NCBI RefSeq assembly: GCF_039555335.1
Contig: NC_092647.1
Span: 18,820,946-18,884,945 of the forward strand
DNA from: Amphiura filiformis
Lineage: Eukaryota
DNA: 64,000 nt
Direction: 5' to 3'
The position numbers and the translations under genes are program-made. Shown piece by piece: positions 5,582 through 58,642 of the stretch (positions are counted from its first letter, which is position 1; each line of letters opens with the position of its first letter). A model generated the notes under the pieces. That model was not told the DNA's origin and searched no databases. It was given only the letters and a program-made list of their open reading frames with translations.

Positions 5582-6259
5582 AACGTTTTCGACATCATTC
5601 GCAAAAGGTTATAAAAGGTTGTCGGAAAACGTTTAAATGTCGGGTTATATAAAAGGTACATTAATGGTATAAAACGTCTTCATAACATTAAATAACATTT
5701 GTTGGTAATTTACTGCACAGCAAACACAAATGTTTTACAGAAAATATTTAAATGTCGAGTTATATAAAGGGTATAAAAACGTTTTAATAACATTCCAAAA
5801 ACATTTGTGAAAACTTGGTACAAATCATTCCAAACAGAATGTTATTTTGGGGTTGAAAAAATATTTTGCAAAAAATGTTTGCCCAAAATATTTAAAATAA
5901 CGTTTTTAAAATGTTTTCACGACCTTTATAAAACCCGACATTTAAATGTTATTAAAACGTTTTGTAAAAAACATTTAAAGAACATTTCTGTGTTTGCTGG
6001 GTGCAAATATTTTAATATAATGTTATTTAAGTGTTGACAAAATATTTGACCAAAAATGTTTGCAAAAATAGTTTACAATGACATTTCGAAAACATTTTAA
6101 AAATATTGTTGTAGTGTGTTTTCATACAAAACGTTTTAAAACGATTTCATGACCTTTATATAACCCGACATTTTAATGTTATTAAAACGTTTTACCTAAA
6201 CCAAAACCCAAAATATAACTTATTTAAAACGTTTTAAAAACGTTTTTGTGTTTGCTGGG
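5568..6259. mobile_element. composite MITE-a insertion #1 (692 bp): TIR CCCAGCAAACAC/GTGTTTGCTGGG, flanking TA duplication, internal nested copy 5713-6004
   Basis: The ends are perfect inverted repeats. TA is present at 5566-5567 and 6260-6261. The internal 292-bp unit has its own TIRs of about 70 bp (CAGCAAACACAAATGTTTTA..TAAATGTCGAGTTATATAAA). It is 92% identical to the copy at 56483-57173. Confidence 0.7.
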
Positions 6260-7523
6260 TACCTGACTGTATGAAGCTTTTGTTGCAGATTTGGCAAGTG
6301 TAAGGTTCCTCTTTTGAATGAATTCGTTCATGTATTTTCAAGGCACATGACTGTGTGAAGCCTTTGTTGCAGTATTGGCATATGAAAGGCCTCTCTTTCG
6401 TATGGATTCGTTCATGTATTTTCAAGGCACATGACTGTGTGAAGCCTTTGTTGCAATATTGACATGTGTAAGGCGTCTCGTTGGTATGAAATCGTTCATG
6501 ATATTTCAAGTAACCAGACGTTGTGAAGCCTTTGTTGCAGTATTGGCAAATATAAGGCCTTTCTTTGGTATGTATTCGTTCATGTATTTTCAAGTTCCCA
6601 GACTGTGCGAAGCCTTTGTTGCAGTATTGACATATGAAAGGCTTCTCTTTCGTATGAATTCGTTCATGTGTTTTCAATTCACCAGACTGTGTGAAGCCTT
6701 TGTTGCAGTATTGGCATATGAAAGGCTTCTCTTTCGTATGGATTCGTTCATGTGTTTTCAAGTGACCTGACGTTGTGAAGCCTTTGTTGCAGTATTGGCA
6801 TATGAAAGGCTTCTCTTTCGTATGAATTCGTTCATGTCTTTTCAAGTTACCTGACGTTGTGAAGCCTTCGTTGCAGTATTGGCATATGAAAGGCTTCTCT
6901 TTCGTATGGACTCGTTCATGTATTTTCAAGGCACATGGCTGTGTGAAGCCTTTGTTGCAATATTGACATATGTAAGGCGTCTCGTTGGTATGAATTCGTT
7001 CATGTGTTTTTAAGTTCCCAGACGTTGTGAAGCCTTTGTCGCAGTATTGGCATATGAAAGGCTTCTCTTTCGTATGGATTCGTTCATGTGTTTTCAAGTG
7101 ACCTGACTGTGTGAAGCCTTTATTACAGTATTGACATATGAAAGGCTTCTCTTTCGTATTATTTTGTTTATGTACATTTACCTTACTGATTGAAAACGGT
7201 TTGTCAAAATTTTGACCTTGATAAAATACCAATTGCGAATCGTTCTCATTGGTTGGTTTGCTTGATGAACCATTACCACTTGTCCATTGGTCAAGAGATG
7301 GTGACGTCAAATAACCATCGCTTCTGCTATTATCGGAGGTCTTTATATTTCTGCTTGGAATGGGTATCAATTTCTTCTTATAGTCATACCAATATGCACG
7401 AATCCACAGCTCATGACGCAGATGACGCAGATATCGATGATTATTATTAAAGAACCTTCGTCTGCAATATTTACACACGTGAGGCATCAGGTATTCCCAT
7501 TCTCGTGGTCTTCTTAGAGGCAT
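6234..7523 (-). CDS. ZF gene A: N-terminal domain (about 135 aa) plus 10 C2H2 fingers and the first half of finger 11. The stop is provided by the MITE-a insertion.
   Basis: ORF of 429 aa. ATG at 7521-7523 preceded by ..CATTCATTGCAG. C-x2-C-x12-H-x3-H units with HTKEKP(F/Y) linkers. Confidence 0.8.
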   Translation of the reverse strand: MPLRRPREWEYLMPHVCKYCRRRFFNNNHRYLRHLRHELWIRAYWYDYKKKLIPIPSRNIKTSDNSRSDGYLTSPSLDQWTSGNGSSSKPTNENDSQLVFYQGQNFDKPFSISKVNVHKQNNTKEKPFICQYCNKGFTQSGHLKTHERIHTKEKPFICQYCDKGFTTSGNLKTHERIHTNETPYICQYCNKGFTQPCALKIHERVHTKEKPFICQYCNEGFTTSGNLKRHERIHTKEKPFICQYCNKGFTTSGHLKTHERIHTKEKPFICQYCNKGFTQSGELKTHERIHTKEKPFICQYCNKGFAQSGNLKIHERIHTKERPYICQYCNKGFTTSGYLKYHERFHTNETPYTCQYCNKGFTQSCALKIHERIHTKERPFICQYCNKGFTQSCALKIHERIHSKEEPYTCQICNKSFIQSGTQQTQKRF

Positions 7524-12960: not shown

Positions 12961-15540
12961 ATGTTTTTCTTATTTATTCAATCTCTTATTTATTTATTTA
13001 TTTATTTACTACTTATTTACCATTATACTTTTTTTTCTTCTTCTTACCCTGTCATTTGTGCTCTATCATTCATTATTATTCTTGGTAGGTTTCCGCCTCA
13101 CACCACCTGTGTTTCTACTGCCTTAACTTCTTTTAGTGTATTAAACCCTCTTGTTTTTGTATTAAGTGTTTTTCGTATCTATATAATTGTTGTATGTTGG
13201 TATTTTATGGCAGAAAAGTGTAATAATTGCTGTAAATTGATTTTAAGACATCATTCTCATATATCATGTACTTCTTGTAATTATTTATATCATACCCGTT
13301 GTGTTTATACTGATGTTGACAATCACCTAGATTGGTTTTGTTTCAAATGTACTGGTAACCTTTTCCCTTTTAACCATTATGTCGATGACGACGAGTTCAG
13401 ATTTGCCTTATTTTGTTTTGACAATACAATTGAGTTTAATCGTATGCTTAGTTTGAAATTAAATCCCTTTAACTTTGAAGATATGTTTCGGACATCATCC
13501 AATGAATCTATTAATTTGAATGAGCACACAAGCCCTCTCAATAATTGTTCTTATTTATTTGACAACGATATTACCTGTTCAGGTGATAATGATTTTTCAA
13601 TTTTGCATTTCAATTCACGTAGTCTCAACAAAAATTTTGATAACATTCATAGCTTTATTTCTGGACTAAGTCACACTTTTACAATTATTTCCATTTCAGA
13701 AACGTGGTTAAATGATGACAATTTTAATATGATTGATATTGAAAATTATGTTCTCGTTAATGCACCCCGACAAGGTAGAAGAAGCGGTGGCTCTGCTATT
13801 TATATTCATGATTCAGTTGCTTACCGTGAAAGGGAAGATCTTAAATTAATTGTTGAATCATCTGATGACATCGACCACTCTGAGTCTGTATTTATTGAAA
13901 TTTTAAATTCTGTTAACAAAAATATAATTGTGGGTAATATTTATCGTGCACATCGTACTAATGTAAATATGTTCCTTACTGACTTGGAAAATTGTGTTGC
14001 TAAATTGTCGTGTGAAAATAAGCAGTGTTATGTTTCTGGCGATTTTAATTTTGATTTATTACAGTATACTAACAATAACACAATTAATGATTTTCTCAAT
14101 ATTTTTTACAATAATAATATGCACCCACTGATTGACAGGCCTACTAGAATAACACCCACTACCGCTTCTTTACTTGACAATATTTTTACAAATGTCCTCA
14201 CACACCAAATAAAATCTGGTATTTTCGTTAGAGGCTTAACTGATCATTACCCTATTTTTCAAATTACCAAATCTATTCCTCTTACACACCCACGCCACCA
14301 CCAGCATACAACATATCGTTTAATTAATCAAAATAGAATCCGAAATTTTCAGAATCATTTAAAACTGGTTGATTGGAATTTTGTTGAAAACATAGGTTCT
14401 TGTGAGCCTGCCTACATGGCTTTTCTTAATAAATTTTCTGATTTATATAACATTCATTTTCCCTTGAAATCGTCTCGCTCTAGTAGTTCCAGTAGTCGTC
14501 GAACTCCTCGCAAACCGTGGATTACAACAGCTGTCCTTAAATCTATTGTTCGAAAGGAAAAACTTTACAGAAAGTATGTCGGTCATCCAACAGAGTCTAA
14601 TAAAACGAATTATCATGTTTATCGCAATCGACTGACTTCTATCATTAGGTCTTCCAAAAAAGATTACTACGCTGAGAAACTAGAGAATTGTAAAAATAAC
14701 TCAAAACGAACTTGGAATATTTTAAATTCCATTCTAGGTCGCCAACATAGGCTTGATCTTCCAACCATGTTTAACATCAATAACGTTTCAACTTCGGATT
14801 CTCAGCATATTGCAGATAATTTCAATTCATATTTTGTTAATATTGGCTCTAAATTAGCTAGCAAAATTCATCAACCAAATACTGATTTTCGTGAATTTTT
14901 AATTAATGCTCATTCTCCTGTTAACTCACTCTTTTTTTCACCCACCAACTTCGATGAAGTAGTCAATCTTTGTATGGCACTGAAGCCTGGGGCAAGCTGT
15001 GGTCATGATGAAATCAAACCCGAGGTTATTAAAGCAGTCAGCACCTTAATCGCAACCCCACTTGTCCACATTTTTAATTTATCCCTGTCTTCTGGTTTTG
15101 TTCCCCACCAACTCAAGATCGCTAAAGTTGTTCCCATTTTTAAGATGGTGATCGCCACGATTCTTCCAATTATAGACCAATTTCAGTTCTTCCTGCTTTT
15201 TCAAAAGTTCTTGAGCGTCTGGTCCACAAGAGGTTGTACAATTTTATTTCCCGATTTAATCTACTTCATAACTCCCAATTTGGTTTTCGTTCTAACCGTT
15301 CCACATCTATGGCCATCATGGAAGTCTACAATAAAATTGTTAACGATCTCGATAACAAAAATCACGCCCTTGGTATCTTCCTGGACCTCTCGAAGGCATT
15401 CGACACGGTTAACCATGATATTCTTTTTTCAAAACTCGCTCATTACGGTATTCGTGGGAATGCCTTCGATTGGTTCAGGAGTTACCTTACTGATAGGTCC
15501 CAGTTCGTTAACTTTAATCATCGTAAATCAATTCATTTGA
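12961..15540 (+). CDS. LINE-1 ORF: PHD-like finger, APE-type endonuclease and RT N-terminal region (real start probably ATG at 13207)
   Basis: PHD-like CNNCCKL..HHSHISCTSCNYLYHTRC..CFKC. Endonuclease motifs FNSRSL, SETWL, SGDFNFDLL, LTDHYPIF. The first 80 aa are low-complexity and not credible. Confidence 0.75.
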   Translation: MFFLFIQSLIYLFIYLLLIYHYTFFSSSYPVICALSFIIILGRFPPHTTCVSTALTSFSVLNPLVFVLSVFRIYIIVVCWYFMAEKCNNCCKLILRHHSHISCTSCNYLYHTRCVYTDVDNHLDWFCFKCTGNLFPFNHYVDDDEFRFALFCFDNTIEFNRMLSLKLNPFNFEDMFRTSSNESINLNEHTSPLNNCSYLFDNDITCSGDNDFSILHFNSRSLNKNFDNIHSFISGLSHTFTIISISETWLNDDNFNMIDIENYVLVNAPRQGRRSGGSAIYIHDSVAYREREDLKLIVESSDDIDHSESVFIEILNSVNKNIIVGNIYRAHRTNVNMFLTDLENCVAKLSCENKQCYVSGDFNFDLLQYTNNNTINDFLNIFYNNNMHPLIDRPTRITPTTASLLDNIFTNVLTHQIKSGIFVRGLTDHYPIFQITKSIPLTHPRHHQHTTYRLINQNRIRNFQNHLKLVDWNFVENIGSCEPAYMAFLNKFSDLYNIHFPLKSSRSSSSSSRRTPRKPWITTAVLKSIVRKEKLYRKYVGHPTESNKTNYHVYRNRLTSIIRSSKKDYYAEKLENCKNNSKRTWNILNSILGRQHRLDLPTMFNINNVSTSDSQHIADNFNSYFVNIGSKLASKIHQPNTDFREFLINAHSPVNSLFFSPTNFDEVVNLCMALKPGASCGHDEIKPEVIKAVSTLIATPLVHIFNLSLSSGFVPHQLKIAKVVPIFKMVIATILPIIDQFQFFLLFQKFLSVWSTRGCTILFPDLIYFITPNLVFVLTVPHLWPSWKSTIKLLTISITKITPLVSSWTSRRHSTRLTMIFFFQNSLITVFVGMPSIGSGVTLLIGPSSLTLIIVNQFI

Positions 15541-16370
15541 ATACAAGTTGTGGAGTTCCACAGGGCTCGATCTTAGGCCCCTTATTATTCATTTTATATA
15601 TAAATGACATTGTGTTTACAAGTAAATTCTTCTCATTTGTCATCTATGCTGATGACACTAATTTATTGGCTTCACATAAAAATCTCCATCACCTCATACA
15701 TTCAGCTAATATCGAACTTACAAAAATTTCCACATGGCTTAAAGTAAACAAACTTTCCCTTAATATTAAAAAGACCACGTATATGTTATTTAAAAACAAA
15801 CACAACACGCGCTTAACGTATCCAGACACCATATCAATAAATATTGAAAACAAACCTATCTCAAGGGTCTCTCACACAAAATTTCTCAGGATAATTCTTG
15901 ATGATTCTCTAACATGGCATCAACATAACACTTATATTACAAATATTGTTTCGAAGTATTCAGGTATCCTTTATCGTCTTAAACACATACTTTCTGGCTC
16001 AACGTTATTTTCTCTTTATTCTAGTTTGGTTTTACCACATATTCAATATTGTAATATCATTTGGGCCGACAAGAATAATTGCTATTTACAATCTATTTAT
16101 CTCAAACAAAAGAAAATTGTCCGTTTATGCACCAACTCACATTACCTTGCACACACACAACCTTTGTTTAAGAGATTAAATACACTTACAGTCTTTGATA
16201 TTTACAAATATCAAATTTCCCTCTTATGTATAAGTTCAAAAGTGGCTTACTCCCAAATATTTTCACTGATTATTTTAAGAAGAGTAATACCTTCCATTCT
16301 TATGGAACCAGGTCAGCTGAACTGTATAGACCTCACAACTTCAGAACAGATCTTGCAAATAACACAATGA
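15234..16370 (+). CDS. LINE-1 reverse transcriptase (post-frameshift segment)
   Basis: [42 protein letters not shown] (YxDD) motifs. Confidence 0.8.
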   Translation: MYNFISRFNLLHNSQFGFRSNRSTSMAIMEVYNKIVNDLDNKNHALGIFLDLSKAFDTVNHDILFSKLAHYGIRGNAFDWFRSYLTDRSQFVNFNHRKSIHLNTSCGVPQGSILGPLLFILYINDIVFTSKFFSFVIYADDTNLLASHKNLHHLIHSANIELTKISTWLKVNKLSLNIKKTTYMLFKNKHNTRLTYPDTISINIENKPISRVSHTKFLRIILDDSLTWHQHNTYITNIVSKYSGILYRLKHILSGSTLFSLYSSLVLPHIQYCNIIWADKNNCYLQSIYLKQKKIVRLCTNSHYLAHTQPLFKRLNTLTVFDIYKYQISLLCISSKVAYSQIFSLIILRRVIPSILMEPGQLNCIDLTTSEQILQITQ

Positions 16371-18489: not shown

Positions 18490-18794
18490 ATTTTGGGGTA
18501 TAGTTTTGGTAAAAACGTTTTAATAACATTAAAATGTCGGGTTATACAAAGGTCATCAAAACGTTTTTAATACATATTAAAACACACTACAACGAACTTG
18601 TTGTCAAAATGTTATTGTAAAATGTTTTTGCAAACATGTTTTAACAAATATTTCGTCAACACCTAAGTTACATTATGTTATAAAAACGTTTTATACTCTT
18701 TATATACCTTTTATATAACCCGACATTTACACGTTTTTTGGCAATCTTTTTAACCTTTTGTGAATGTTGTCGGAAACGTGTTGTGTTTGCTGGG
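18490..18794. mobile_element. partial MITE-a (right TIR GTGTTTGCTGGG at 18783-18794) forming the 3' end of ZF gene B
   Basis: TTATATAACCCGACATTTACACG..GTGTTTGCTGGGG junction abutting a finger. The same junction is found at 26817-26828 (gene C). Confidence 0.55.
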
Positions 18795-19230
18795 GCGTCT
18801 TTTTGGCATGACTTCGCTCATGTGTTTTCAAATTACCTGACTTTGTGAAGCCTTTGTTGCAGTATTGACATATGTAAGGCTTCAATTTAGTATGAATTCG
18901 TTCACGTGTTTTCAAGTTACCTAACTGCATGAAGCCTTTGTTGTAGTATTGGCATATGTAAGGCTTCTCTTTGGTATGGATACATTCATGTCTTTTCAAG
19001 CTACCTGACTGTGTGAAGCCTTTGTTGCAGTATTGGCATAGGTAAGGCTTCTCTTAAGTATGAATTTGCTCATGTGTTTTGAAGTCACTAGACTGTGTGA
19101 AGCATTTGTTGCAGTATTGGCATATGTAAAGCTTCCCTTTGGCATGAATTAGTTCATGTGTTTTCAAGCTACCTGACTGTGTGAAGCATTTGTTGCAATA
19201 TTGGCACATGTAAGGTTTCTCTTTCTTATT

Positions 19231-19501
19231 GTTTGTTTGTTTGTTTGTTTACCCAGGTTGGTCCGTGAGGAACACATGCTAATCCATGGAAAACCATGGA
19301 CAGTTCCAAGCTCATACAAATGCACAAGCCTGGATAGCCAGTGTAGGCTAATATATGCATGTTGGCCTAGATAGCTTTGATAAACAAAGCAAGAAATGGA
19401 AGAAAATAGCTAGGAAAAAGAGAAAAGAGAGAAGGCCACTCCCAAACACAATTGTACAATTTTACTCTTAGCCCTTACTTCGTGAGAAAGGAAACTGGAA
19501 T
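19231..19501 (-). mobile_element. insertion of about 270 bp into a finger of gene B, with a (TTTG)5 terminus; SINE-like, family unknown
   Basis: The ZF consensus TTCTCTTTCGTATGAATTCGTTCATG is split between 19230 and 19502 by unrelated sequence that starts with TGTTTGTTTGTTTGTTTGTTT. Confidence 0.4.
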
Positions 19502-19677
19502 TCCAATCTGAATTCGTTCATGTATTTGTAAGTTCCCAGATTGTGTGAAACCTTTGTTGCAGTATTGGCATATATAAGGCTTCACTTTGGTATGGATACG
19601 TTCATGTCTTTTCAAATAAACAGAATGTGTGAAGCCTTTGTTGCAGTATTGGCATAGGTAAGGCTTCTCTTTTGTAT

Positions 19678-21193
19678 CAAACTGTGTAGACTCTCATTCA
19701 TCTGGGTATGTTGAAATTAAGATTTAATTTAAATCTGGTCAACCAGACATACCTATTTTTGACGGACGAACCGACGTTGCGACTGAAACCTTCAGTCTTC
19801 AGCTGGGTTGTGATGCAAATGACCTTGAGTACCGGACACTTCCGGTATTGATGACAATCGACGAGGAATGTCCTTTATGATCCTGTCCCAGCCGTGTGAA
19901 CACTTCATGAACGGACAAACTTGTCTCCTGATCAATTATGTGATCTACTTAGTCTCTGCTTAGATAACACCTACTTTTCGTACAGTGGAAAATTTTACCA
20001 ACAATGTCATGGATGTTCCATGGGTTCGCCCGTCTCACCGATTATCGCTAACTTGTATATGGAAAGATTTGAGCGCATTGCTTTGTCAATTTTTCCCGGT
20101 ATAGCGCCATCTAGATGGTATCGATACGTGGATGATACTTGGATTTTAATTAAATCCAACGAACTTGATAGGTTTTTCAACCACATCAATGAAATCGATC
20201 CCCATATCAAGTTCACGCAGGAAGGAGTGTCAAATAACAAACTCGCGTTTCTTGACTGTTTAGTGTCCGTGGAAGAAGATCGCTCCCTTACTGTGTCTGT
20301 TTATCGAAAACAGACACACACGGACCAGTACCTTCAATTCGGTTCCAATCACCCGCTCATTCAGAAACTCGGCGTGGTCAACACCTTGTTCCACAGAGCT
20401 GAGTCGATCATCACCAAAGACTCAGATAAGATTGCTGAACAACAACATCTTCGCAAAGCGCTGGGTAACTGTGGTTACCAGGACTGGGCCATAAACAAGG
20501 CCTTGAACAAGGACAGCAATAAACCCACCGCCAGTAGCACGAATCAGACGGGGAGAACAACAAGTATTACCATCCCATATCACGGAGACTTATCGGAAAA
20601 ACTCAAAAGAATCTATCGCGACCACGGAATTACCACCCACTTTAAACCAACGAACACGATCCGCCAGTCCTTAGTGCATCCCAAGGACAAGCAGCCCAAG
20701 GGGAGAATCAGTGGAGTGGTCTACGGGGTCCGCTGTTCCGAAGAGCAAGCCTGTCAAGACTCTTACATAGGAGAAACCGCCCAACCTCTTCACAATCGCA
20801 TGTTACAACATCGCAGAGCCAGCTCAGGTGGAAACGACTCATCAGTGTATTTACATTTGAAAGCCACCGGACACCATTTTGACACCAAGGATGTCCGAAT
20901 CCTAGATCGCGAGCATCGTTGGTTTGAGCGTGGAGTGAAAGAGGCAATCTGGGTGAGGGCTGAGCAACCATCCCTCAACCGCGGTGGCGGTGTCCGGGCC
21001 AAACTATCACACGGCTGGGACAGGATCATAAAGGACATTCCTCGTCGATTGTCATCAATACCGGAAGTGTCCGGTACTCAAGGTCATTTGCATCACAACC
21101 CAGCTGAAGACTGAAGGTTTCAGTCGCAACGTCGGTTCGTCCGTCAAAAATAGGTATGTCTGGTTGACCAGATTTAAATTAAATCTTAATTTC
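19678..21193 (+). mobile_element. truncated Penelope-like retroelement with inverted-repeat termini of about 195 bp (19713-19899 versus 21007-21193) and a 10-bp TSD TCTTTTGTAT
   Basis: Inverted repeats are near-perfect. TSD at 19668-19677 and 21194-21203. The right IR encodes the last 36 aa of the ORF. Inserted in a ZF finger. Confidence 0.8.
19921..21114 (+). CDS. Penelope-like RT (C-terminal motifs, YVDD) fused to a GIY-YIG endonuclease
   Basis: GSPVSPIIANLYME, WYRYVDDTWIL, then GVVYGVRC..YIGET (GIY-YIG). Confidence 0.8.
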   Translation: MSPDQLCDLLSLCLDNTYFSYSGKFYQQCHGCSMGSPVSPIIANLYMERFERIALSIFPGIAPSRWYRYVDDTWILIKSNELDRFFNHINEIDPHIKFTQEGVSNNKLAFLDCLVSVEEDRSLTVSVYRKQTHTDQYLQFGSNHPLIQKLGVVNTLFHRAESIITKDSDKIAEQQHLRKALGNCGYQDWAINKALNKDSNKPTASSTNQTGRTTSITIPYHGDLSEKLKRIYRDHGITTHFKPTNTIRQSLVHPKDKQPKGRISGVVYGVRCSEEQACQDSYIGETAQPLHNRMLQHRRASSGGNDSSVYLHLKATGHHFDTKDVRILDREHRWFERGVKEAIWVRAEQPSLNRGGGVRAKLSHGWDRIIKDIPRRLSSIPEVSGTQGHLHHNPAED

Positions 21194-22839
21194 TCTTTTG
21201 TATGATTTTTGTCATGTGTTTTCAAGTCACTAGACTGTGTGAAGCTTTCTTTGCAGTATTGGCACATGTAAAGCTTCCCTTTGGCATGAAGTAGTTTATG
21301 TGTTTTCAAGTTACCTGACTGTGTGAAGCATTTGTTGCAATATTGGCACATGAAAGGCTTCTCTTTCGTATGAATTCGTTCATGTATTTTCAAGTAACCA
21401 GACGTTGTGAAGCCTTTGTTGCAGTATTGGCATATGAAAGGCTTCTCTTTGGTATGAGTTCGTTCATGTGTTTTCAAGTTACCAGACTGTGTGAAGCCTT
21501 TGTTGCAGTATTGACATATGAAAGACTTCTCTTTCGTATGAATTCGTTCATGTCTTTCCAAGTCAACAGACCGTGTGAAGCCTTTGTTGCAGTATTGGCA
21601 TTTATATGGCTTCTCTTTGGTATGAGTTCGTTCGTGTGTTTTCAAGTGATTAGACTGTGTGAAGCCTTTATTACAGTATTGGCATATATAAAGCTTGTCT
21701 TTGGTATGAATTCGTTCGTGTGTTTTCAAGCTATTTGACCGTGTGAAGCATTTGTTGCAATATTGGCACATGTAAGGTTTCTCTTTCTTATGAATTCGTT
21801 CATGTGTTTTTAAGTTCCCAGATTGTGTGAAACCTTTGTTGCAGTATTGGCATATGAAAGGCTTCTCTTTGGTATGGATACGTTCATGCCTTTTCAAGTG
21901 ACAATAATGTGAGAAGCCTTTGTTGCAGTATTGACATGGGTACGGCTTCCCTTTTGTATGAATTTGTTCATGTGTTTTCAAGTCACTAGACTGTGTGAAG
22001 CATTTGTTGCAGTATTGGCATATGTTAAGCTTTCCTTTGGCATGAAGTAGTTCATGTGTTTTCGAGGTACCTGACTGTGTGAAGCATTTGTTGCAATATT
22101 GGCATATGAAAGGCTTCTCTTTCGTATGAATTCGTTCATGTGTTTTTAAGTTCCCAGACGTTGTGAAGCGTTTGTCGCAGTATTGGCATATAAAAGGCTT
22201 CTCTTTCGTATGAATTCGTACATGTATTTTCAAGTAACGAGACTGTGCGAAGCCTTTGTTGCAGTATTGACATATGTTAGGCTTCTCTTTCGTATGAACT
22301 CGTTCGTGTGCTTTCAAGTTACTAGACTGTGCGAAGCCTTTGTTGCAGTATTGACATATGTAAGGCTTCTCTTTCGTATGAATTCGTTCATGTCTTTCCA
22401 AGTCAACAGACTGTGTGAAGCCTTTGTTGCAGTATTGGCATATGTAGGGCTTCTCTTTTGTATTATTTTGTTTATGTACGTTTACCTTACTGATTGAAAA
22501 CGTTTTGTCATAATTTTGACCTTGGTAAAATAACAGTTGCGAATCGTCCTCCTCGTTCGTTTTTTTGCTTGATGAGTCATTACCACGTGTCCATTGGTCA
22601 GGAGAGGGTGACGTCAGAAAACCATCGCTTCTGCTCTTATCGGAGGTATTTATATTTCTGCTTGGAATGGGTATGAACTTCTTCTTATACGAGTAGTCAT
22701 ACCAATATGCACGAATCCACAGCTCATGATGACGCAGATGATGAAGATATCGATGATTATTATTAAAGAACCTTCGTCTGCAATATTTACACACGTGAGG
22801 CATCAGGTAATCCCATTCTCGTGGTCTTCTTAGAGGCAT
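21055..22839 (-). CDS. ZF gene B: N-terminal domain plus about 16 fingers. The last 46 codons (21055-21193) are read-through into the Penelope IR.
   Basis: MPLRRPREWDYLMPHVCKYCRRRFFNNNHRYLHHLRHH... ATG at 22837-22839 preceded by TTTCAG. Confidence 0.75.
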   Translation of the reverse strand: MPLRRPREWDYLMPHVCKYCRRRFFNNNHRYLHHLRHHELWIRAYWYDYSYKKKFIPIPSRNINTSDKSRSDGFLTSPSPDQWTRGNDSSSKKTNEEDDSQLLFYQGQNYDKTFSISKVNVHKQNNTKEKPYICQYCNKGFTQSVDLERHERIHTKEKPYICQYCNKGFAQSSNLKAHERVHTKEKPNICQYCNKGFAQSRYLKIHVRIHTKEKPFICQYCDKRFTTSGNLKTHERIHTKEKPFICQYCNKCFTQSGTSKTHELLHAKGKLNICQYCNKCFTQSSDLKTHEQIHTKGKPYPCQYCNKGFSHYCHLKRHERIHTKEKPFICQYCNKGFTQSGNLKTHERIHKKEKPYMCQYCNKCFTRSNSLKTHERIHTKDKLYICQYCNKGFTQSNHLKTHERTHTKEKPYKCQYCNKGFTRSVDLERHERIHTKEKSFICQYCNKGFTQSGNLKTHERTHTKEKPFICQYCNKGFTTSGYLKIHERIHTKEKPFMCQYCNKCFTQSGNLKTHKLLHAKGKLYMCQYCKESFTQSSDLKTHDKNHTKEKLRFNLNLVNQTYLFLTDEPTLRLKPSVFSWVVMQMTLSTGHFRY

Positions 22840-26828: not shown

Positions 26829-27245
26829 GGCGTCTCTTTGGCATGACTTCTCTCATGTGTTTTCAAGTTACCTGACTTTGTGAAGCCTTTGTTGCAGTAT
26901 TGACATATGTAAGGCTTCATTTTTGTATGAATTCGCTCACGTGATTTCAAGTTACCTAACTGTATGAAGCCTTTGTTGTAGTATTGACATTATGTAAGGT
27001 TTCTCTTTGGTATGGATACATTCATGTCTTTTCAAGCTACCTGACTGTGTGAAGCCTATGTTGCAGTATTGGCATAGGTAAGGCTTCTCTTTAGTATGAA
27101 CTTGCTCATGTGTTTTGAAGTCACTAGACTGTGTGAAGCATTTGCTGCAGTATTGGCATATGTAAAGCTTCCCTTTGGCATGGAGTAGTTCATGTGTTTT
27201 CAACTTACCTGACTTTGTGAAGCCTTTGTTGCAGTATCGGCACAT
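26702..27245 (-). CDS. ZF gene C distal fingers (two ORF pieces, 26952-27245 and 26702-26950, separated by 1-bp indels), ending inside the MITE-a
   Basis: Finger motifs. The C-terminus ..HAKETPQQTQHVSDN.. is encoded by the MITE-a TIR. Confidence 0.6.
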
Positions 27246-28555
27246 GTAAGGCTTCTCTTTGTATGAATTCGTTCATGTGTTTTTAAGTTCCCAGATTGTG
27301 TGAAACCTCTGTTGCAGTATTGGCATATGAAAGGCTTCTCTTTGGTATGGATACGTTCATGCCTTTTCAAGTGACAATAATGTGAGAAGCCTTTGTTGCA
27401 GTATTGACATGGGTACGGCTTCCCTTTTGTATGAATTTGTTCATGTGTTTTCAAGTCACTAGACTGTGTGAAGCATTTGTTGCAGTATTGGCATATGTTA
27501 AGCTTTCCTTTGGCATGAATTAGTTCATGATATTTCAAGCTGCTTGATTGTGTGAAGCTTTTGTTACAGTATTGACATACATATGGCTTTTTGTTGGTAT
27601 GGATTCGTTCATGTGTTTTCAAGTTACTTGACTGTGTGAATCCTTTGTTGCAGTATTGGCATACATATGGCTTTTTGTTGGTATGGATTCGTTCATGTGT
27701 TTTCAAGTTACTTGACCCTGCGAAGCCTTTATTGCAATATTGGCATATGAAAGGCTTCTCTTTCGTATGAATTCGTTCATGTACTTTCAGGTCATCAGAC
27801 CGTGCGAAGCCTTTGTTGCAGTATTGGCATAGGTAAGGCGTTTCTTTCATATGAATTCGTTCATGTCTTTTCAATTCACCAGACTGTGTGAAGCCTTTGT
27901 TGCAGTATTGGCATATGTAAGGTTTCTCTTTCGTATGAATTCGTTCATGTCTTTTTAAGTTCCCAGAGTGTGTGAAGCCTTTGTTGCAGTATTGGCATAT
28001 GAAAGGCGTCTCTTTCGTATGAATTCGTTCATGTGTTTTCAAGTTACCATACTGTGCGAAGCCTTTGTTGCAGTATTGACATATATAAAGCTTCTCTTTG
28101 GTGTGGATTCGTTCGTGTGTTTTCAAGCTACTTGACCGTGTGAAGCCTTTGTTGCGGTATTGGCATATGAAAGGCTTCTCTTTCATATTATTTTGTTCAT
28201 GTACGTTTACCTTACTGATTGAAAACGGTTTGTCATAATATTGACCTTGGTAACATAACAGTTGCGAATCGTCCTCCTCATTCGTTTTTTTGCTTGTTGA
28301 GTCATTACCACGTGTCCATTGGTCAAGAGATGGTGACGTCAGAAAACCATCGCTTCTGCTATCGGATGTATTTATATTTCTGCTTGGAATGGGTATCAAC
28401 TTCTTCTTATAGTCATACCAATATGCACGAATCCACAGCTCATGATGACGTAGATGACGCAGATATCGATGATTATTATTAAAGAACCTTCGTCTGCAAT
28501 ATTTACACACGTGAGGCATCAGGTATTCCCATTCTCGTGGTCTTCTTAGAGGCAT
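27200..28555 (-). CDS. ZF gene C: N-terminal domain plus about 11 fingers
   Basis: ORF of 451 aa. ATG at 28553-28555 preceded by TTTCAG. Confidence 0.8.
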   Translation of the reverse strand: MPLRRPREWEYLMPHVCKYCRRRFFNNNHRYLRHLRHHELWIRAYWYDYKKKLIPIPSRNINTSDSRSDGFLTSPSLDQWTRGNDSTSKKTNEEDDSQLLCYQGQYYDKPFSISKVNVHEQNNMKEKPFICQYRNKGFTRSSSLKTHERIHTKEKLYICQYCNKGFAQYGNLKTHERIHTKETPFICQYCNKGFTHSGNLKRHERIHTKEKPYICQYCNKGFTQSGELKRHERIHMKETPYLCQYCNKGFARSDDLKVHERIHTKEKPFICQYCNKGFAGSSNLKTHERIHTNKKPYVCQYCNKGFTQSSNLKTHERIHTNKKPYVCQYCNKSFTQSSSLKYHELIHAKGKLNICQYCNKCFTQSSDLKTHEQIHTKGKPYPCQYCNKGFSHYCHLKRHERIHTKEKPFICQYCNRGFTQSGNLKTHERIHTKRSLTCADTATKASQSQVS

Positions 28556-31900: not shown

Positions 31901-32470
31901 GCGTACATTGGAAACGACACCCCCTGGTTCAAAAGCCGTTGTTGACTGTGGTATCTCCGCACAATTATGCAGGCATCTGGACTCTAAATCTTCTCCGTTA
32001 TCCTTGTCCTTTTCATCAGAATCCGCTTCAAAGTTCTCAATCACAACCTAACAGAAAAACTAAGCGCTGGAAAAAGCGTGGAAAAAAAGGTGGTCGCAAA
32101 TCACGACTACAGAACCTTGAACCAAACCCCATCCCCGTGCTCATAACTACTAGACTGGTTTCACCCACCCATTGTCAGTCTTCTGTAAATCACAAGTTCT
32201 TGCGTTCATTTCAAAGACAAAATGATAGAAATGTTAACATTCGACAATGGAACGCACGCTCAGTCCGTAAGAAAACTGTGGCAATTAGCGAAAACATCAT
32301 TGAAAACGATGTTGACATTTTCGTGATCACCGAAACTTGGCTTGCTGAAGACGACCCAGTAGTGATAGGCGAACTGCTACCCCCCGGGTATTCATTTATG
32401 AATTTCCCCAGAAAAAGTAGTGAGCATGGCGGTATTGGTATTGTTCACAAAACCCAACTGAGCCTTCAGA

Positions 32471-33940
32471 GTGCTCCTACATGCCAGTGTAATTGTCAAA
32501 AAAACTGGACTTAGAATAATATCAATCTACCGTCCCCCTCCGTCCAAAGAAAATGGGTTTAAAACGAGTGATTACCTGTGTGAATTTGAAGCTTTCTTAG
32601 ATGAAATTTGTCTCACTCCGACAAAAACCATTCTCCTTGGGGATTACAACATTCACGTTGATCTACCTTCTAAGCCAGAGGTGTCTAGGTTTCTGGATGC
32701 CCTCACCGTCAATGGTCTTCACCAGCATGTTGATTCACCAACACATAAGGATGGTCACATACTGGACCTCGTCATATCACGTCCTGAAGATGACCTAGTG
32801 GACAAGTGTTGTGTTTTGCCAGGCTTAGGATCTGATCACAAGTTGGTATACTGGACCTTAAATTGTATTAAACCAGCGCCACTCAGGGTTACGTCAATTG
32901 TTAGGAACATTAAAAACATTGACGCGATTTTATTTGCAAATGATCTTAAATCTGAAGTTGGAGGTCTTGATGCTCGGGGTCCTGTCGATGAGATGCTCGA
33001 TAAATTTGATTTATCCGTGTCTGGTGTGTTCGACGTTCATGCACCTCCTCGACAACGATCTCGGAGTATCAAACCTCGGCTTCCTTGGTGTAATGAAGAC
33101 ATTAATGTTGCCAGACGTGAAAGGAGAAGGATTGAGCGTAAATGGCGCAAATCCAAGAGTAATGTAGATCTTGAAGCCTATGTTGAGCAAACTAAATATG
33201 TCAGTAAATTAATCCAGTGTGCTAAGGAAGTATACTATAATGATATTCTTGAGTCTGCCGATACTAAGAACATGTACTTTACCTTAAACAAACTGTTGAG
33301 TAAGAACACTAGACAACTGCCTGATGCAGAATGTATGATTGAATTGTGCAATTCATTTGCAAGGTACTTTACTCAAAAGGTAATTAAGATCAGAAATGAA
33401 CGCGATGCAACACCTGTTACGTATAATGCTGCCCATACTATACTTGATGAGAGTTCTAACCTTAACACACCATCTTTTTGTGAGTTTAGGCATGTTTCTG
33501 CTGATGATATCAAGAAAATTGTGCTCGCAACACCTAACAAGACTAGTTCTTTAGACACAATTCCTATGGAGTTGCTCAAAGATAATATCAATGTTTTGAT
33601 CCAACCTCTTGCCAGTATATCGTTCATCAATCACTCAGTAGCGGAGTATTTCCTTCAAAACTTCGTGAGGCGGTGGTATCTCCCATCCTCAAAAAATCCA
33701 CGCTTGACAAAAACATCCTTAAGAACTACCGCCCTGTCTCAAATATCAGGTACCTCTCGAAAATCATGGAGAAAATTGCTTGTGCTCAAATCAAAGATCA
33801 TCTCAGTACCAATTGCCTTCTTGAGGATTTCCAATCTGCGTACAGACAGCAGCACAGCACGGAGACGGCTTTACTACGAGTCGAAACGGATATCCTGTGT
33901 GCTTTGGACAATTATAAGGCTGTGGCTGTTGTGTTGTTAG
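32471..33940 (+). CDS. LINE-2 endonuclease and RT N-terminal segment
   Basis: See element evidence. Confidence 0.65.
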   Translation: MLLHASVIVKKTGLRIISIYRPPPSKENGFKTSDYLCEFEAFLDEICLTPTKTILLGDYNIHVDLPSKPEVSRFLDALTVNGLHQHVDSPTHKDGHILDLVISRPEDDLVDKCCVLPGLGSDHKLVYWTLNCIKPAPLRVTSIVRNIKNIDAILFANDLKSEVGGLDARGPVDEMLDKFDLSVSGVFDVHAPPRQRSRSIKPRLPWCNEDINVARRERRRIERKWRKSKSNVDLEAYVEQTKYVSKLIQCAKEVYYNDILESADTKNMYFTLNKLLSKNTRQLPDAECMIELCNSFARYFTQKVIKIRNERDATPVTYNAAHTILDESSNLNTPSFCEFRHVSADDIKKIVLATPNKTSSLDTIPMELLKDNINVLIQPLASISFINHSVAEYFLQNFVRRWYLPSSKNPRLTKTSLRTTALSQISGTSRKSWRKLLVLKSKIISVPIAFLRISNLRTDSSTARRRLYYESKRISCVLWTIIRLWLLCC

Positions 33941-34461
33941 ACCTATCCGCAGCCTTCGACACTGTAGATCATCAGATACTGTTGAAACGGCTTTCGAATA
34001 CTTTTGGTATTTCTGGAACAGTCCTGAATTGGATAAGATCCTATCTCAAGGACCGCTCATTCCGGGTGTGTCTGGGGGATAATTCGTCCATTAATCACAC
34101 GCTTGACTTCGGCCTCCCACAAGGATCTGTTGTTGGACCTTTATTCTTCAGCATGTATACTTATCATATCGGTGCCATCATACGGAATCATAACATCTGC
34201 TACCATATGTATGCCGATGATGTCCAACTTTATCTGACGTTCAACCCAAAAGTGGATGGAGACGGTCATCGAGCAGTGACCAGATTGGCAGCCTGCATTG
34301 ATGAAATTAGTGCATGGATGACTCAGAATAAACTGAAACTTAACAATGATAAGCCGTTACATTACCACAGAAAGTTGCCATCATCTTGTCCGTGCTCTGA
34401 TTCTGTCCCGGCTCGACTACGCCAATGCTCTGATGTTTGGGATTTCGGCCAAAGACCGTAA
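33673..34461 (+). CDS. LINE-2 RT core
   Basis: FDTVDH, YADDVQLY. Confidence 0.7.
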   Translation: MVSPILKKSTLDKNILKNYRPVSNIRYLSKIMEKIACAQIKDHLSTNCLLEDFQSAYRQQHSTETALLRVETDILCALDNYKAVAVVLLDLSAAFDTVDHQILLKRLSNTFGISGTVLNWIRSYLKDRSFRVCLGDNSSINHTLDFGLPQGSVVGPLFFSMYTYHIGAIIRNHNICYHMYADDVQLYLTFNPKVDGDGHRAVTRLAACIDEISAWMTQNKLKLNNDKPLHYHRKLPSSCPCSDSVPARLRQCSDVWDFGQRP

Positions 34462-34855
34462 GCAGCTGCAGAAAGTCCAAAACAGGGCCGCAAGAATTGT
34501 TTTTAGAGCCGAAAGACTGCATCCATCAGCACCGCTACTCAAACACCTTCATTGGCTGCCAATTGAACAGCGAATCAAGTTCAAAATCTTGCTTATCACC
34601 TTCAAAGGAGTCCACGGCCTCATTCCACCTTACCTCGCCGAATTTCTTCAGAGATATTCATGCGGTAGGCCAAACTTGCGTTCCAGTGATGACAGTCTCC
34701 TTTTACGCAATCCACGAACCTACAGAAACGACGGTGACAAGGCCTTCTACGCTGCAGCCCCCCGACTATGGAACTCCATACCTGCTTCCCTTCGTCATTC
34801 CTCCTCTGTCCTTGCTTTTAGGAAGGGTCTTAAGACCTATTTATTCCCCGGTTGA
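34346..34855 (+). CDS. LINE-2 RT C-terminal conserved domain
   Basis: RLDYANALMFG..LHWLPIEQRIKFKIL. Confidence 0.65.
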   Translation: MISRYITTESCHHLVRALILSRLDYANALMFGISAKDRKQLQKVQNRAARIVFRAERLHPSAPLLKHLHWLPIEQRIKFKILLITFKGVHGLIPPYLAEFLQRYSCGRPNLRSSDDSLLLRNPRTYRNDGDKAFYAAAPRLWNSIPASLRHSSSVLAFRKGLKTYLFPG

Positions 34856-35425
34856 TACCACCGCCTTATTCACGCCCCGTAAAATTGTGTTTTGTGGAGT
34901 TTTTATATGTATTTTGTTTGTTTTTATCCATGAACTGCTATGCCGGACTGGCATCTTTTATAACATGTGTTCATGCAGCATGCTCCTCTGCTTTAATCAA
35001 TTATTGTGTGTTTTTGATGTATTTTGCTTGCGTACATTTAAATTTGCTATGTTTTTGTAAAACATTTTTGCATGTTGGTTGCTACTGTTCTTCCAAATTG
35101 AGCTGGTCACGCTATGTATTTTATCATGTAATTGTTGTGTATATCGTGCTGCCTATGAGTCTTTCATATGTAATAGGCCCTCCAGCCACATAGCGGGAGT
35201 TCCATATTGAGCTGTTTTAAAATTGTATAATTTCCTGCTCTTTTAAATAATGAGCTGGTCTCGCTAAGTATTTTTAACTTTTTATCGTATTTCTTGCTAA
35301 ATTATTGGGTTTTTGTTTTCTTGCCATATGTAGTGCTATTTTTGTTGTTTTTATAATGTATTGTATTGTAAAGCGCTTTGTACATGAAAAGGCGCTTAAT
35401 AAATGATGCTTATTATTATATTATT

Positions 35426-48352: not shown

Positions 48353-49357
48353 TTACAGTATTGACATAATTATGTAAGGCTTCTCCTTGGTATGGGTTCG
48401 TTCATGTCTTTTCAAGTGACCAGACGTTGTGAAGCTTTTGTTGCAGAGTTGGCATAAGTAAGGCTCCTCTCTCGTATGAATTCGTTCATGTGCTTTCAAG
48501 CTACATGCCTGTGTGAATCCTTTGTTGCAGAATTGGCAAGTATAAGGTTTTTCATTGGTATGAATTCTTTCATGTCTTTTCAAGCTATATGACAGTGTGA
48601 AACCTTTATTGCAGTATTGGCATTTGTAAGGCGTCTCTTTGGTATGAATTCTTTCATGTGCTTTCAATCCACTAGACTGTGTGAAGCCTTTGTTGCAGTA
48701 TTGACATGTGAAAGGCTTCTCTTTGGTATGAATTCGTTCATGTGTTTTCAAGTGACAAGACTGTGTGAACCCTTTGTTACAGTATTGGCATATGTAAGGC
48801 TTCTCTTTCGTATGAATTCGTTCATGTCTTTTCAAGCAACTTGACTGTGTGAAGCATTTGCGGCAGTATTGGCATATGTAAGGCTTCTCTTTGGTATGTG
48901 TTCGAGTGTGTTCTTTCAAGTCACATGACTGTGTGAAGCCTTTTTTACAGTATAAACATATGTAAGGCTTATCTTTGATGTGGGTTCGTTCATGTACGTT
49001 TATATTACTCACGATTGGAAACGTTTTTTCATAACGTTCACCTTGGTAATATTCCAATTGCGAATCGTTCTCATTCATTTCTTTGCTTATTGAGTCATTT
49101 CCACGTGTCCAATGGTTTAGAGATGGTGATGTCAGAAAACCATCTGTTCTGCTATCATCGGCGATGCTTATCTTACTGCTTGGTATTGGTATCGGTATCA
49201 ACTTCTTCTTATAGTCATACCAGTATGCACGAATCCACAGCTCATGATGACGCAGATGACGAAGATATCGATGATTATTATTAAAGAACCTTCGTCTGCA
49301 ATATTTACACACGTGAGGCATTAGATGGTCCCATTCTCTTGGTCTTCTTAGAGGCAT
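48353..49357 (-). CDS. ZF gene E: N-terminal domain plus about 7 fingers
   Basis: ORF of 334 aa. ATG at 49355-49357 preceded by TTTCAG. Confidence 0.8.
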   Translation of the reverse strand: MPLRRPREWDHLMPHVCKYCRRRFFNNNHRYLRHLRHHELWIRAYWYDYKKKLIPIPIPSSKISIADDSRTDGFLTSPSLNHWTRGNDSISKEMNENDSQLEYYQGERYEKTFPIVSNINVHERTHIKDKPYICLYCKKGFTQSCDLKEHTRTHTKEKPYICQYCRKCFTQSSCLKRHERIHTKEKPYICQYCNKGFTQSCHLKTHERIHTKEKPFTCQYCNKGFTQSSGLKAHERIHTKETPYKCQYCNKGFTLSYSLKRHERIHTNEKPYTCQFCNKGFTQACSLKAHERIHTREEPYLCQLCNKSFTTSGHLKRHERTHTKEKPYIIMSIL

Positions 49358-56494: not shown

Positions 56495-57173
56495 AAAACG
56501 TTTTCGACATTATTCGCAAAAGGTTATAAAAGGTTGTCAGAAAACGTTTAAATGTCGGGTTATATAAAGGGCATATTAAGGGTATAAAACGTTTTCATAA
56601 CATTGAAAATCATTTTTTGATAATCTACTGCTCAGCAAACAAAAATATTTTACAGAAAACGTTTAAATGTCGGGTTATATAAAGGGTATAAAAACGTTTT
56701 AATAACATTCCAAAAACATTTTTGAAAACTTGATACAAAACATTCTAAACAGAATGTTATTTTGGGAGTTGAAAAATATTTTGCGAAAAATGTTTGCCCA
56801 AAATATTTGCAATAACGTTTTGAAAACGTTTTCATGACCTTTATATAACCCGACATTTAAATGTTATTAAAACGTTTTGAAAAAAACATTTTAAGAACAT
56901 TTCTGTGTTTGCTGGATGCAAATATTTTAACATAATGTTATTTAAGTGTTGACAAAATATTTGGCAAAAATGTTTGCAAAAAAGTTTACAATAACATTTT
57001 GAAAACATTTTAAAAATATTGTGGTAGTGTGTTTTCATACAAAACGTTTTAAAACGTTTTCATGACCTTTATATAACCCGACATTTTAATGTTATTAAAA
57101 CGTTTTTATGTAAACCAAAAACCAAAATATAACTTATTAAAAACGTTTTTAAAACGTTTTTGTGTTTGCTGGG
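56483..57173. mobile_element. composite MITE-a insertion #2 (691 bp), AT duplication at 56481-56482 and 57174-57175
   Basis: Same four-part internal structure, about 92% identical to 5568-6259. Perfect TIRs CCCAGCAAACAC/GTGTTTGCTGGG. Confidence 0.7.
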
Positions 57174-58642
57174 ATGTAAGGCGTCTCTTTGGTATGAATT
57201 CGTTCATGTATTTTCAAGTTATATGACCGTATGAAGCATTTATTACAATATTGGCATATGTAAGGCGTCTCTTTGGCATGAGTTTGTTCATGTACTTTCA
57301 AGTTACCTGACTTTGTGAAGCCTTTTTTACAGTATTGGCATATGTAAGGCTTCTCTTTGGTATGGATTCGTTCATGTTCTTTCAAGTGACCTGACCGTGG
57401 GAAGCCTTTATTACAATATTGACATATGTAAGGCTTCTCTTTCGTATGAATTCGTTCATGTGTTTTCAAATGACATAACTGTGTGAAGCCTTTGTTGCAG
57501 TATTGGCATATGTAAGGCGTCTTATTGGTATGAATTCGTTCATGTGATTTCAAGTGGCCAGACGTTGTGAAGCCTTTATTACAATATTGACATATGTATG
57601 GCGTCTCTTTGGTATGGATTCGTTCATGTGTTTTCAAGGGACTTGACTGTGTGAAGCCCTTATTACAGTATTGACATATGTAAGGCTTCTCTTTCGTATG
57701 AATTCGTTCATGTGTTTTCAAATGACATAACTGTGTGAAGCCTTTGTTGCAGTATTGGCATATGTAAGGCGTCTTATTGGTATGAATTCGTTCATGTGAT
57801 TTCAAGTGGCCAGACGTTGTGAAGCCTTTATTACAATATTGGCATATGTATGTCGTCTCTTTGGTATGGATTCGTTCATGTGTTTTCAAGTGACTTGACT
57901 GTGTGAAGCCCTTATTACAGTATTGACATATGTAAGGCTTCTCTTTCGTATGAATTCGTTCATGTGTTTTCAAATTACATAACTGTGTGAAGCCTTTGTT
58001 GCAGCGTTTGCATAGGTAAGGCCTCTCTTTGGTATGATTTAGTTCATGATTTTTCAAGCTATGTACATATGGAAACCCTTTATTGCAAAACTGACATAGG
58101 TACGGCGTCTCCTTGGTATGAATTCGTTCATGTCTTTTCAAGTTACCTGACTGTGTGAAGCCTTTTTTACAGTATTGACATATGTAAGGCTTCTCCTTGG
58201 TATGGATTCGTTCATGTACTTTCAAGTTACTTAACTGTGTGAAGCCTTTATTACAGTATTGACATATGTAAGGCTTCTCGGTTCGTTCATGTACTTTTAC
58301 CTTACTCCTGGTTGGAAACATTGTCTCATAATATTCACCTTGGTAAAATACCAATTGCGAATCGTTCTCCTTCGTTTGTTTGCTTGATGGGTCATTTTCA
58401 CCTGTCCATTGGTCAAGAAATGGTAACGTCAGAAAACCGCCTTTTCTAATGGCATCGGAGATGTTTATATTTCTGCTTGGAGAGGGTATCATCAACTTCT
58501 TCTTATACCAGTATGCTCGAATCCACAGCTCATGACGACGTAGATGACACAGATATCGATGTGTATTATTAAAGAACCTTCTGCAATATTTACACACGTG
58601 AGGCATCAAGCACTGCCATTCTCGTGATCCTCTTGGAGGCAT
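57149..58642 (-). CDS. ZF gene G: divergent N-terminal domain (MPPRGSREWQCLMPHVCKYCRRFFNNTHRYLCHLRRH..) plus 13 fingers. The stop is provided by the MITE-a.
   Basis: ORF of 497 aa. ATG preceded by TTGTTCCAG. Confidence 0.8.
   Translation of the reverse strand: MPPRGSREWQCLMPHVCKYCRRFFNNTHRYLCHLRRHELWIRAYWYKKKLMIPSPSRNINISDAIRKGGFLTLPFLDQWTGENDPSSKQTKENDSQLVFYQGEYYETMFPTRSKVKVHERTEKPYICQYCNKGFTQLSNLKVHERIHTKEKPYICQYCKKGFTQSGNLKRHERIHTKETPYLCQFCNKGFPYVHSLKNHELNHTKERPYLCKRCNKGFTQLCNLKTHERIHTKEKPYICQYCNKGFTQSSHLKTHERIHTKETTYICQYCNKGFTTSGHLKSHERIHTNKTPYICQYCNKGFTQLCHLKTHERIHTKEKPYICQYCNKGFTQSSPLKTHERIHTKETPYICQYCNKGFTTSGHLKSHERIHTNKTPYICQYCNKGFTQLCHLKTHERIHTKEKPYICQYCNKGFPRSGHLKEHERIHTKEKPYICQYCKKGFTKSGNLKVHEQTHAKETPYICQYCNKCFIRSYNLKIHERIHTKETPYIPANTKTF

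Follow-up and report, generated by a model that had tools for sequence, protein, structure and literature searches.

Poseidon_Ac (PAc), a Penelope-like element (PLE) of the Penelope/Poseidon clade in the lizard Anolis carolinensis, encodes a reverse transcriptase (RT) followed by a C-terminal GIY-YIG nuclease. Its purified protein cleaves and extends both target strands, and reverse transcription starts at two internal sites that are non-homologous to the target and bracket a 'tail', which is the stretch between these two RT initiation sites (Frangieh et al. 2024, PMC11167929). PLE tails have been described as 30-40-bp extensions that are often present at only one of the insertion's ends, and an inverted 5'-truncated copy is also typical (Craig et al. 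2021, PMC8557442). In Adineta vaga, the tail was a 31-bp extension on one inverted pseudo-long terminal repeat (pLTR) that lengthened the included start of the open reading frame (ORF) from 12 to 22 codons, and the insertions were flanked by 8-10-bp duplications (PMC3846280). Here we compare with these systems an insert that interrupts a C2H2 zinc-finger gene in the echinoderm Amphiura filiformis, within a stretch of 64,000 nt (NCBI RefSeq assembly GCF_039555335.1, contig NC_092647.1, positions 18,820,946 to 18,884,945 of the forward strand). This whole stretch is hereafter called the window, and all coordinates refer to it.

The insert consists of two 5'-truncated copies of one element, placed head to head with their 3' ends outward and enclosed together by one target-site duplication. 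We concluded, with a probability of about 0.88, that a canonical Penelope-like retrotransposon with a C-terminal nuclease of the Penelope/Poseidon type inserted here once and recently, leaving a copy that was dead on arrival. The insert showed the anatomy expected of PLE insertions, namely 5' truncation, an inverted truncated neighbour, a tail at one end and a short duplication, and every structural feature of the insert has a published precedent.

As in Poseidon_Ac, the RT precedes a C-terminal GIY-YIG domain, the tandem unit comprises one ORF and a short spacer (126 nt in PAc and ~90 nt here), insertions terminate within the beginning of the following ORF, and two start sites bracket a tail of 30-40 nt, with the distal site at a homologous codon. 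The ORF here begins ~31 codons later, however, so that the distal site lies at +24 as opposed to +111-118; six residues separate the nuclease-motif cysteines where PAc has one; and no counterpart was found of the hammerhead that PAc carries at its spacer-ORF junction. Pen2a_Av and its kin in A. vaga share with the window copy the inverted partial copy that completes the insert, the 8-10-bp duplications and the presence of the first ORF codons in the pLTR plus tail. They belong to another clade related to Perere, however, and their copies are full length with two direct pLTRs and one inverted pLTR, whereas the copy in the window is truncated at its 5' end and lacks a direct pLTR. The Naiad/Chlamys PLEs (Craig et al. 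2021, PMC8557442) are similar in that they are 5'-truncated, have an inverted copy next to them and a 30-40-bp tail on one side, and lack a canonical hammerhead, but their GIY-YIG domain is N-terminal and they carry a CxC linker and DKA. Membership in this group was considered and rejected, since the nuclease is C-terminal here and relatives of the window element carry DKG.

Anatomy of the insert and the interrupted zinc-finger gene

An earlier note, made from the letters of the window alone, had described a truncated PLE with exact inverted termini of 195 bp. Their exactness and position stood but their length did not: the interval 19713-19899 aligned with the reverse complement of 21007-21193 at 187 of 187 nt, and the match could not be extended by a single base at either end. 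This 187-nt inverted repeat spans the last 35 codons and the stop codon of the element ORF. The long arm (1294 nt) stops 11 nt short of the start codon of the next unit, while the short arm (187 + 35 nt) stops 24 nt into the next ORF. Given that the arms show no difference from each other, nor do the duplications, and that 404 codons are still open, we consider the insertion recent; lacking the protein's N-terminal third as well as RT motifs 1-3, the copy cannot transpose by itself and is non-autonomous. The G+C content of the element (19678-21193) is 46%, against 36% for the whole window, and a second copy of the element was not found elsewhere in the 64 kb.

The duplication that encloses both arms is 10 bp long (TCTTTTGTAT), or 13 nt (TTCTCTTTTGTAT) when TTC shared with the right end of the element is counted, and a 2-nt overlap (AT) is possible at the left junction. 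Since the 10-mer forms part of the conserved HTKEKP linker in an array of 84-bp fingers, a bare match of this kind could stem from the array itself. We accepted the duplication as genuine because the phase of the fingers decides the matter: the finger copies at 19623 and 21233 are spaced by 1610 nt, which equals 1526 + 84, and removal of 19678-21203 (1526 nt) brings back the exact 84-bp period. The same excision yields, on the minus strand, a 612-aa ORF that encodes 17 fingers and stops with TAA at 19477-19475, and the empty site before insertion is predicted to read ...GGCTTCTCTTTTGTATGATTTTTG... At present the host ORF (21055-22839, 594 aa) reads through 45 codons of the element and ends within it (...HTKEK-LRFNLNLVNQ...GHFRY-stop), so the insertion costs the host protein two of its 17 fingers. 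The 10-bp duplication, the insertion into a long finger array and the head-to-head arrangement of partial copies typical of Penelope had all been proposed in the earlier note, and each was borne out, the last by the single duplication, the outward 3' ends and the collinearity with Poseidon_Ac.

When the restored 612-aa protein was used as a search query, only generic C2H2 proteins at 30-52% identity were retrieved, with no empty-site allele and no named orthologue among them. The disrupted gene lies in a cluster of C2H2 zinc-finger genes with CQYC-type fingers, all on the minus strand (6234-7523, 21055-22839, 27200-28555, 48353-49357 and 57149-58642). Further finger ORFs at 18727-19209, just downstream of the restored stop codon, may represent a further exon or a decayed paralogue. 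For annotation purposes, the locus is a 1.5-kb transposon fragment within zinc-finger coding sequence; masking is advisable to keep the 397-aa ORF from being annotated as a host gene, and the model of the interrupted gene needs a flag for the loss of two fingers.

The encoded reverse transcriptase and nuclease

Pfam RVT_1 matched the window frame with 35.7 bits (cutoff 29.6), aligning residues 10-118 with positions 96-192 of the 205-position profile, and the frame contains YRYVDDTW, in agreement with the earlier reading of RT motifs through YVDD. As the match covers only the C-terminal half of the profile, the copy starts near RT motif 4. With the 5' truncation at 19900, the frame has lost the N-terminal domain together with DKG and RT motifs 1-3; in longer relatives, P0001 and P0085 among them, the DKG motif is present as LPADKGRCTVVL. 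In BLASTP against Poseidon_Ac, for which the Repbase consensus supplied with PMC11167929 served as the reference, the window ORF was collinear with residues 441-804 over a 375-aa alignment (33% identity, E 4e-56) that spanned RT motifs 4 onward and the nuclease. The alignment of P0085, a relative from A. filiformis, with Poseidon_Ac began at the N-terminus and extended across the RT (E 2e-118). The nearest database proteins were uncharacterised proteins of A. filiformis at 92-93% identity, followed by proteins of sea urchin, amphioxus and fish at 50-58%.

The C-terminal domain reads GVVYGVRC-SEEQA-C-QDSYIGE...R...H...H...E...N, with both cysteines between GIY and YIG. The CCHH arrangement with the cysteines in this position, combined with the catalytic R/H/E/N, is the hallmark of PLE nucleases (Craig et al., PMC8557442). 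In an alignment of 26 sequences, Y47, C51, C57, Y61-G63-E64, R72, H76, H97, E120 and N132 were invariant. PF01541 was matched by 17 of 26 aligned homologues at E<=0.01, and two of the homologues (P0112 and P0053) scored above the curated Pfam cutoff. By fold and by homologues, the GIY-YIG domain of the window protein is real and lies C-terminal to the RT, as the earlier note had supposed. Between the two domains, the linker (residues ~190-270) read directly from the sequence has a single cysteine (LGNCGYQDW) and hence no CX2-5CxxC motif; judged from these residues, the one-cysteine linker and CCHH fit the Penelope/Poseidon clade as opposed to Neptune, Nematis and Hydra. The features of the insert and the interrupted gene are listed in Table 1.

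Table 1. Coordinates of the PLE insert, its parts and the interrupted host ORF in the window
Feature	Position	Strand	Remarks
3' end of severed host ORF: last two fingers, short C-terminal extension, TAA	19475-19677	-	frame continues after in silico excision
Left target-site duplication copy	19668-19677		identical to 21194-21203; removal of one copy and the insert regains finger period and frame
PLE tail, outward 3' end of inverted arm: 11 nt of inter-ORF spacer, ATG and codons 2-8 (MNESLHSL)	19678-19712	-	matches P0047 and L001
Inverted, heavily 5'-truncated partial copy: last 35 codons, stop codon, 79 nt of 3' spacer	19713-19899	-	187/187 against 21007-21193
Forward 5'-truncated PLE copy, 1294 nt, ending at the proximal terminus without tail	19900-21193	+	~74% nucleotide identity to L001 1342-2671
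Open frame, 404 codons: RT from about motif 4, thumb/linker, GIY-YIG nuclease	19900-21114	+	stop codon 21112-21114; collinear with Poseidon_Ac
RT core, C-terminal half including YVDD	19927-20253	+	Pfam RVT_1
GIY-YIG endonuclease core, GVVY...C-x6-C...YIGE...R...H...E...N, PLE-type CCHH	20713-20979	+	homologue alignment
Conserved 7-bp hairpin with GGU loop over the stop codon	21109-21125	+	mirrored at 19781-19797 in the inverted arm
3' spacer: spacer between ORFs in the tandem source unit, lacking the final 11 nt	21115-21193	+	tandem junction of L012; 72-nt repeat of L001
Right target-site duplication copy	21194-21203		directly abuts the insert
Host C2H2 zinc-finger ORF, part upstream of the insertion	21204-22839	-	reads on into the element, stops at 21055

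Tail, tandem source and proposed start sites

The segment between the left duplication copy and the inverted repeat had been taken for a 33-bp extra sequence, either transduced or untemplated. It is 35 nt long (19678-19712), and its reverse complement reads AACATACCCAG ATG AAT GAG AGT CTA CAC AGT TTG, which corresponds to the end of the element's own spacer and its first eight ORF codons. A protein of A. filiformis (P0047, MNESLHSLIRKEYGK...) begins with the same eight encoded residues, MNESLHSL, as does the ORF in L001, a near full-length relative from a JGI marine contig at ~74% nucleotide identity. By sequence, then, this segment is the published PLE tail, neither transduced nor untemplated. 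The earlier suggestion to look for it at other copies was rewarded, as the tail sequence was found contiguous with the 3' untranslated region (UTR) in L001, L009, L010, L014 and L016.

Since the 35-nt segment is templated by the element, the copied RNA must have extended beyond one unit into the following one; and since the arms end at -11 nt and +24 nt of the next ORF, the source copy was tandem or pLTR-bearing, although the window copy itself has no direct pLTR. Both kinds of context were seen in relatives. In L001, the same 72 nt occur before the ORF start and at the 3' end, where the 3' UTR runs directly into the tail sequence and the downstream repeat copy stops at ...CACAGTTT, the same point as the window segment. 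L012 (ENA ERZ17100129 contig, 2064-2550) is a true head-to-tail tandem, in which the end of one ORF is followed by a spacer of ~90 nt and by a next ORF that begins MTESIHSVIRKEYGK and runs for 470 nt to the contig end. L012 is the kind of source copy that the window insertion requires.

The recurrence of the insert anatomy was evaluated in more distantly related loci from ENA and JGI contigs, of which eight (L004-L011) came from one metagenome-contig scan with a conserved 24-mer of the tail and are thus biased toward tail-bearing ends, while four further loci came from protein look-ups without this bias; L002 and L003 were uninformative because their 3' ends are decayed. In addition to the window, 12 related ends had their distal end near ...CACAGTTT(G) with unrelated flank beyond. 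The stops agreed within a few nt (L001, L004-L011 and L014), those of L010 and L016 falling ~5-6 nt short. The proximal, tail-less end is at AATTTC in the window, CAGTTT in L011, TAGTTT in L004 and CTAATTA in L010, and lies 6 nt further (+6) in L013. L011 (732-947) joins a 51-nt inverted arm with tail to a 165-nt forward arm without tail between exact 12-bp duplications (TAGACCCAATTG), and two head-to-head arms, one of them with tail, were also found in L004 (~1540-1745; duplication imperfect and weak, ~10/13 nt) and L010 (~1221-1741; duplication imperfect). L009 is a fourth related composite within which the contig ends, and L006 is a solo 3' fragment of ~65 nt with tail and an 11-nt duplication. 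The window architecture is therefore the normal product of its element family.

The 3' ends of the two arms in the window thus lie at two sites 35 nt apart, and these sites can be placed on Poseidon_Ac. By protein alignment (P0085 E3 = PAc E34), the distal site of the window element (codon 8/9) corresponds to about nt 115-120 of Poseidon_Ac, the end of codon 8 falling at nt ~117, within the AC-rich start region mapped there at nt 111-118 (ACAACACA in Poseidon_Ac and CTACACAG in the window element). This distal start at a homologous codon suggests that internal initiation is conserved across deuterostome PLEs. In the mechanism that we propose, the GIY-YIG nuclease would cut both target strands ~10 nt apart, and each freed 3'-OH would prime reverse transcription internally on the element RNA, one at the proximal and the other at the distal start site, so that the 35-nt tail would be the stretch between the two. 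The two complementary DNAs (cDNAs) would then be joined at 19899/19900, and gap repair would give rise to the duplication.

An inverted repeat could also arise by fold-back, that is, self-priming or snap-back in which one cDNA or an antisense template loops back on itself, and self-priming was indeed inferred from palindromes at inverted junctions in A. vaga (Arkhipova et al. 2013, PMC3846280). The junction 19899/19900, however, contains no palindrome: the arms meet at the equivalent of 21007 on one side and at a point 1107 nt further upstream on the other, the repeat is at the outer ends and not at the junction, and the arms of the window, L004, L010 and L011 do not meet at one common element coordinate. 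Moreover, the two arms differ in their 3' terminus, which copying back one strand would not produce. We regard fold-back as very improbable.

Two successive insertions, in which a 222-nt minus copy was followed by a 1294-nt plus copy homing beside it, would accord with the clustering of PLE copies and with the report that Poseidon_Ac ribonucleoproteins nick AT-rich DNA in their own pLTR and elsewhere (PMC11167929). The sole duplication, however, flanks the composite with no second one at 19899/19900, the arms are identical at 187 of 187 nt, and composites of this kind are also present in L011 and L010, each within one flanking duplication, and in L004, where the duplication is weak. A history of two insertions is accordingly very improbable.

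Twin priming as in L1, where one RNA is primed from both target strands with inversion and 5' truncation as the result, produces a similar general shape of an inverted 5' part and a normal 3' part within one duplication. In that process the second primer pairs with an internal site of the same RNA, so the inverted segment is the more 5' one and no element sequence is duplicated. Here, in contrast, the inverted arm duplicates 187 nt of the 3' end exactly and reaches 35 nt further 3' than the forward arm, and the 3' end occurs twice in copies that end at different fixed sites. For the 3' end to be present twice, synthesis must have begun twice in the 3'-terminal region, the simplest templates being two molecules or two units of a tandem RNA, and twin priming is hardly credible as the origin of the insert. 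An assembly artefact, with a chimeric or fold-back read as the source of a false inverted duplication, is equally hard to credit: PLE tandem and inverted structures do trouble assemblies (PMC8557442) and the arms are 100% identical, but an artefact would neither lengthen just one arm by 35 nt of element sequence nor yield a clean duplication that restores the host frame, and the same layout was found in independent short contigs of another sequencing project (L004, L010 and L011).

Several results weigh against reading the insert as a single canonical PLE copy primed on both strands. We infer the priming of both strands from the anatomy of the insert together with in vitro data on a distant relative, Poseidon_Ac, and L001 and L002 are too divergent at the junction 19899/19900 for microhomology in cDNA joining to be judged. 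A hammerhead ribozyme was not found by Rfam (E<=10) in the window interval 19500-21400 or in L001. The window protein had no Pfam GIY-YIG match at E<=1, and neither its sequence nor the 26-sequence profile matched a GIY-YIG or other nuclease among PDB sequences, the only PDB matches of the C-terminal domain or profile being chance ones to S-adenosylmethionine decarboxylase. The earlier note had named a profile search without a GIY-YIG motif as grounds for abandoning the Penelope assignment. Such a result was obtained in Pfam for the window protein alone, but a single Pfam-negative protein is too weak a test because homologues of this divergent subfamily do match PF01541.

In all four composites that could be compared (the window, L004, L010 and L011, three of which were found via the tail), the tail is on exactly one arm, and this is always the shorter arm. 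If this held genome-wide, the start sites might be used non-randomly in an ordered reaction, one by the first, long-extending strand and the other by the second, late-starting strand, with the GGU hairpin described below possibly positioning the enzyme; we consider this scheme doubtful. In vitro, Poseidon_Ac used its start sites without a strand difference (PMC11167929).

Hammerhead search, stop-codon hairpin and neighbouring elements

Hammerhead ribozymes have been reported in the pLTRs of canonical PLEs (PMC4209133). In the Rfam search mentioned above, the window region returned only sub-threshold noise of small nucleolar RNA and microRNA families, and L001 returned nothing. A minimal hammerhead pattern that recovered the Poseidon_Ac ribozyme as a positive control found none at the spacer-ORF junction of the window element, L001 or L012-L014, although atypical variants could escape both the Rfam and the pattern searches. 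The junction reads CAGAUGA...GAAA, with A where the essential U4 is expected (window 19678-19712 + 21115-21193; L001 1-120; L012 2064-2200). No decisive structure emerged at the start sites when the RNA of a reconstructed tandem junction was folded.

A conserved hairpin was instead found over the stop codon of the ORF. Across 10 related elements, 98.6% of its cells were paired, compared with 27-47% in slid controls, and compensatory double changes were present in six of the seven pairs. The GGU loop is invariant and is followed by an invariant GCAACGUYGGU. We also considered CUGAAGA-hairpin-CGCAAC after the ORF as a degenerate hammerhead and rejected it, since the bases in the would-be G8 and A9 positions show base-pair covariation and GCAA or GCAC stands in place of GAAA. 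A role of the hairpin in recognition of the RNA by the element's protein is a guess.

The locus provides a clean natural example, from an echinoderm, of a tail bounded by two start sites, a structure for which an in vitro explanation, in the lizard element, came as late as 2024; otherwise the locus adds little. Small leads on how PLE enzymes recognize their RNA come from the lack of a detected hammerhead and from the covariation of the stop-codon hairpin.

Two other retroelements were observed in the window. At 12961-16370 (+), two overlapping long ORFs encode 859 aa (no Pfam match) and 378 aa (RVT_1, 106 bits), and this element is unrelated to the PLE by tblastn. A run of ORFs at 31939-35060 (+), with Exo_endo_phos_2 at 32471-33940 and RVT_1 at 33673-34461, is a frameshifted non-LTR (long terminal repeat) retrotransposon of the long interspersed nuclear element (LINE) type.

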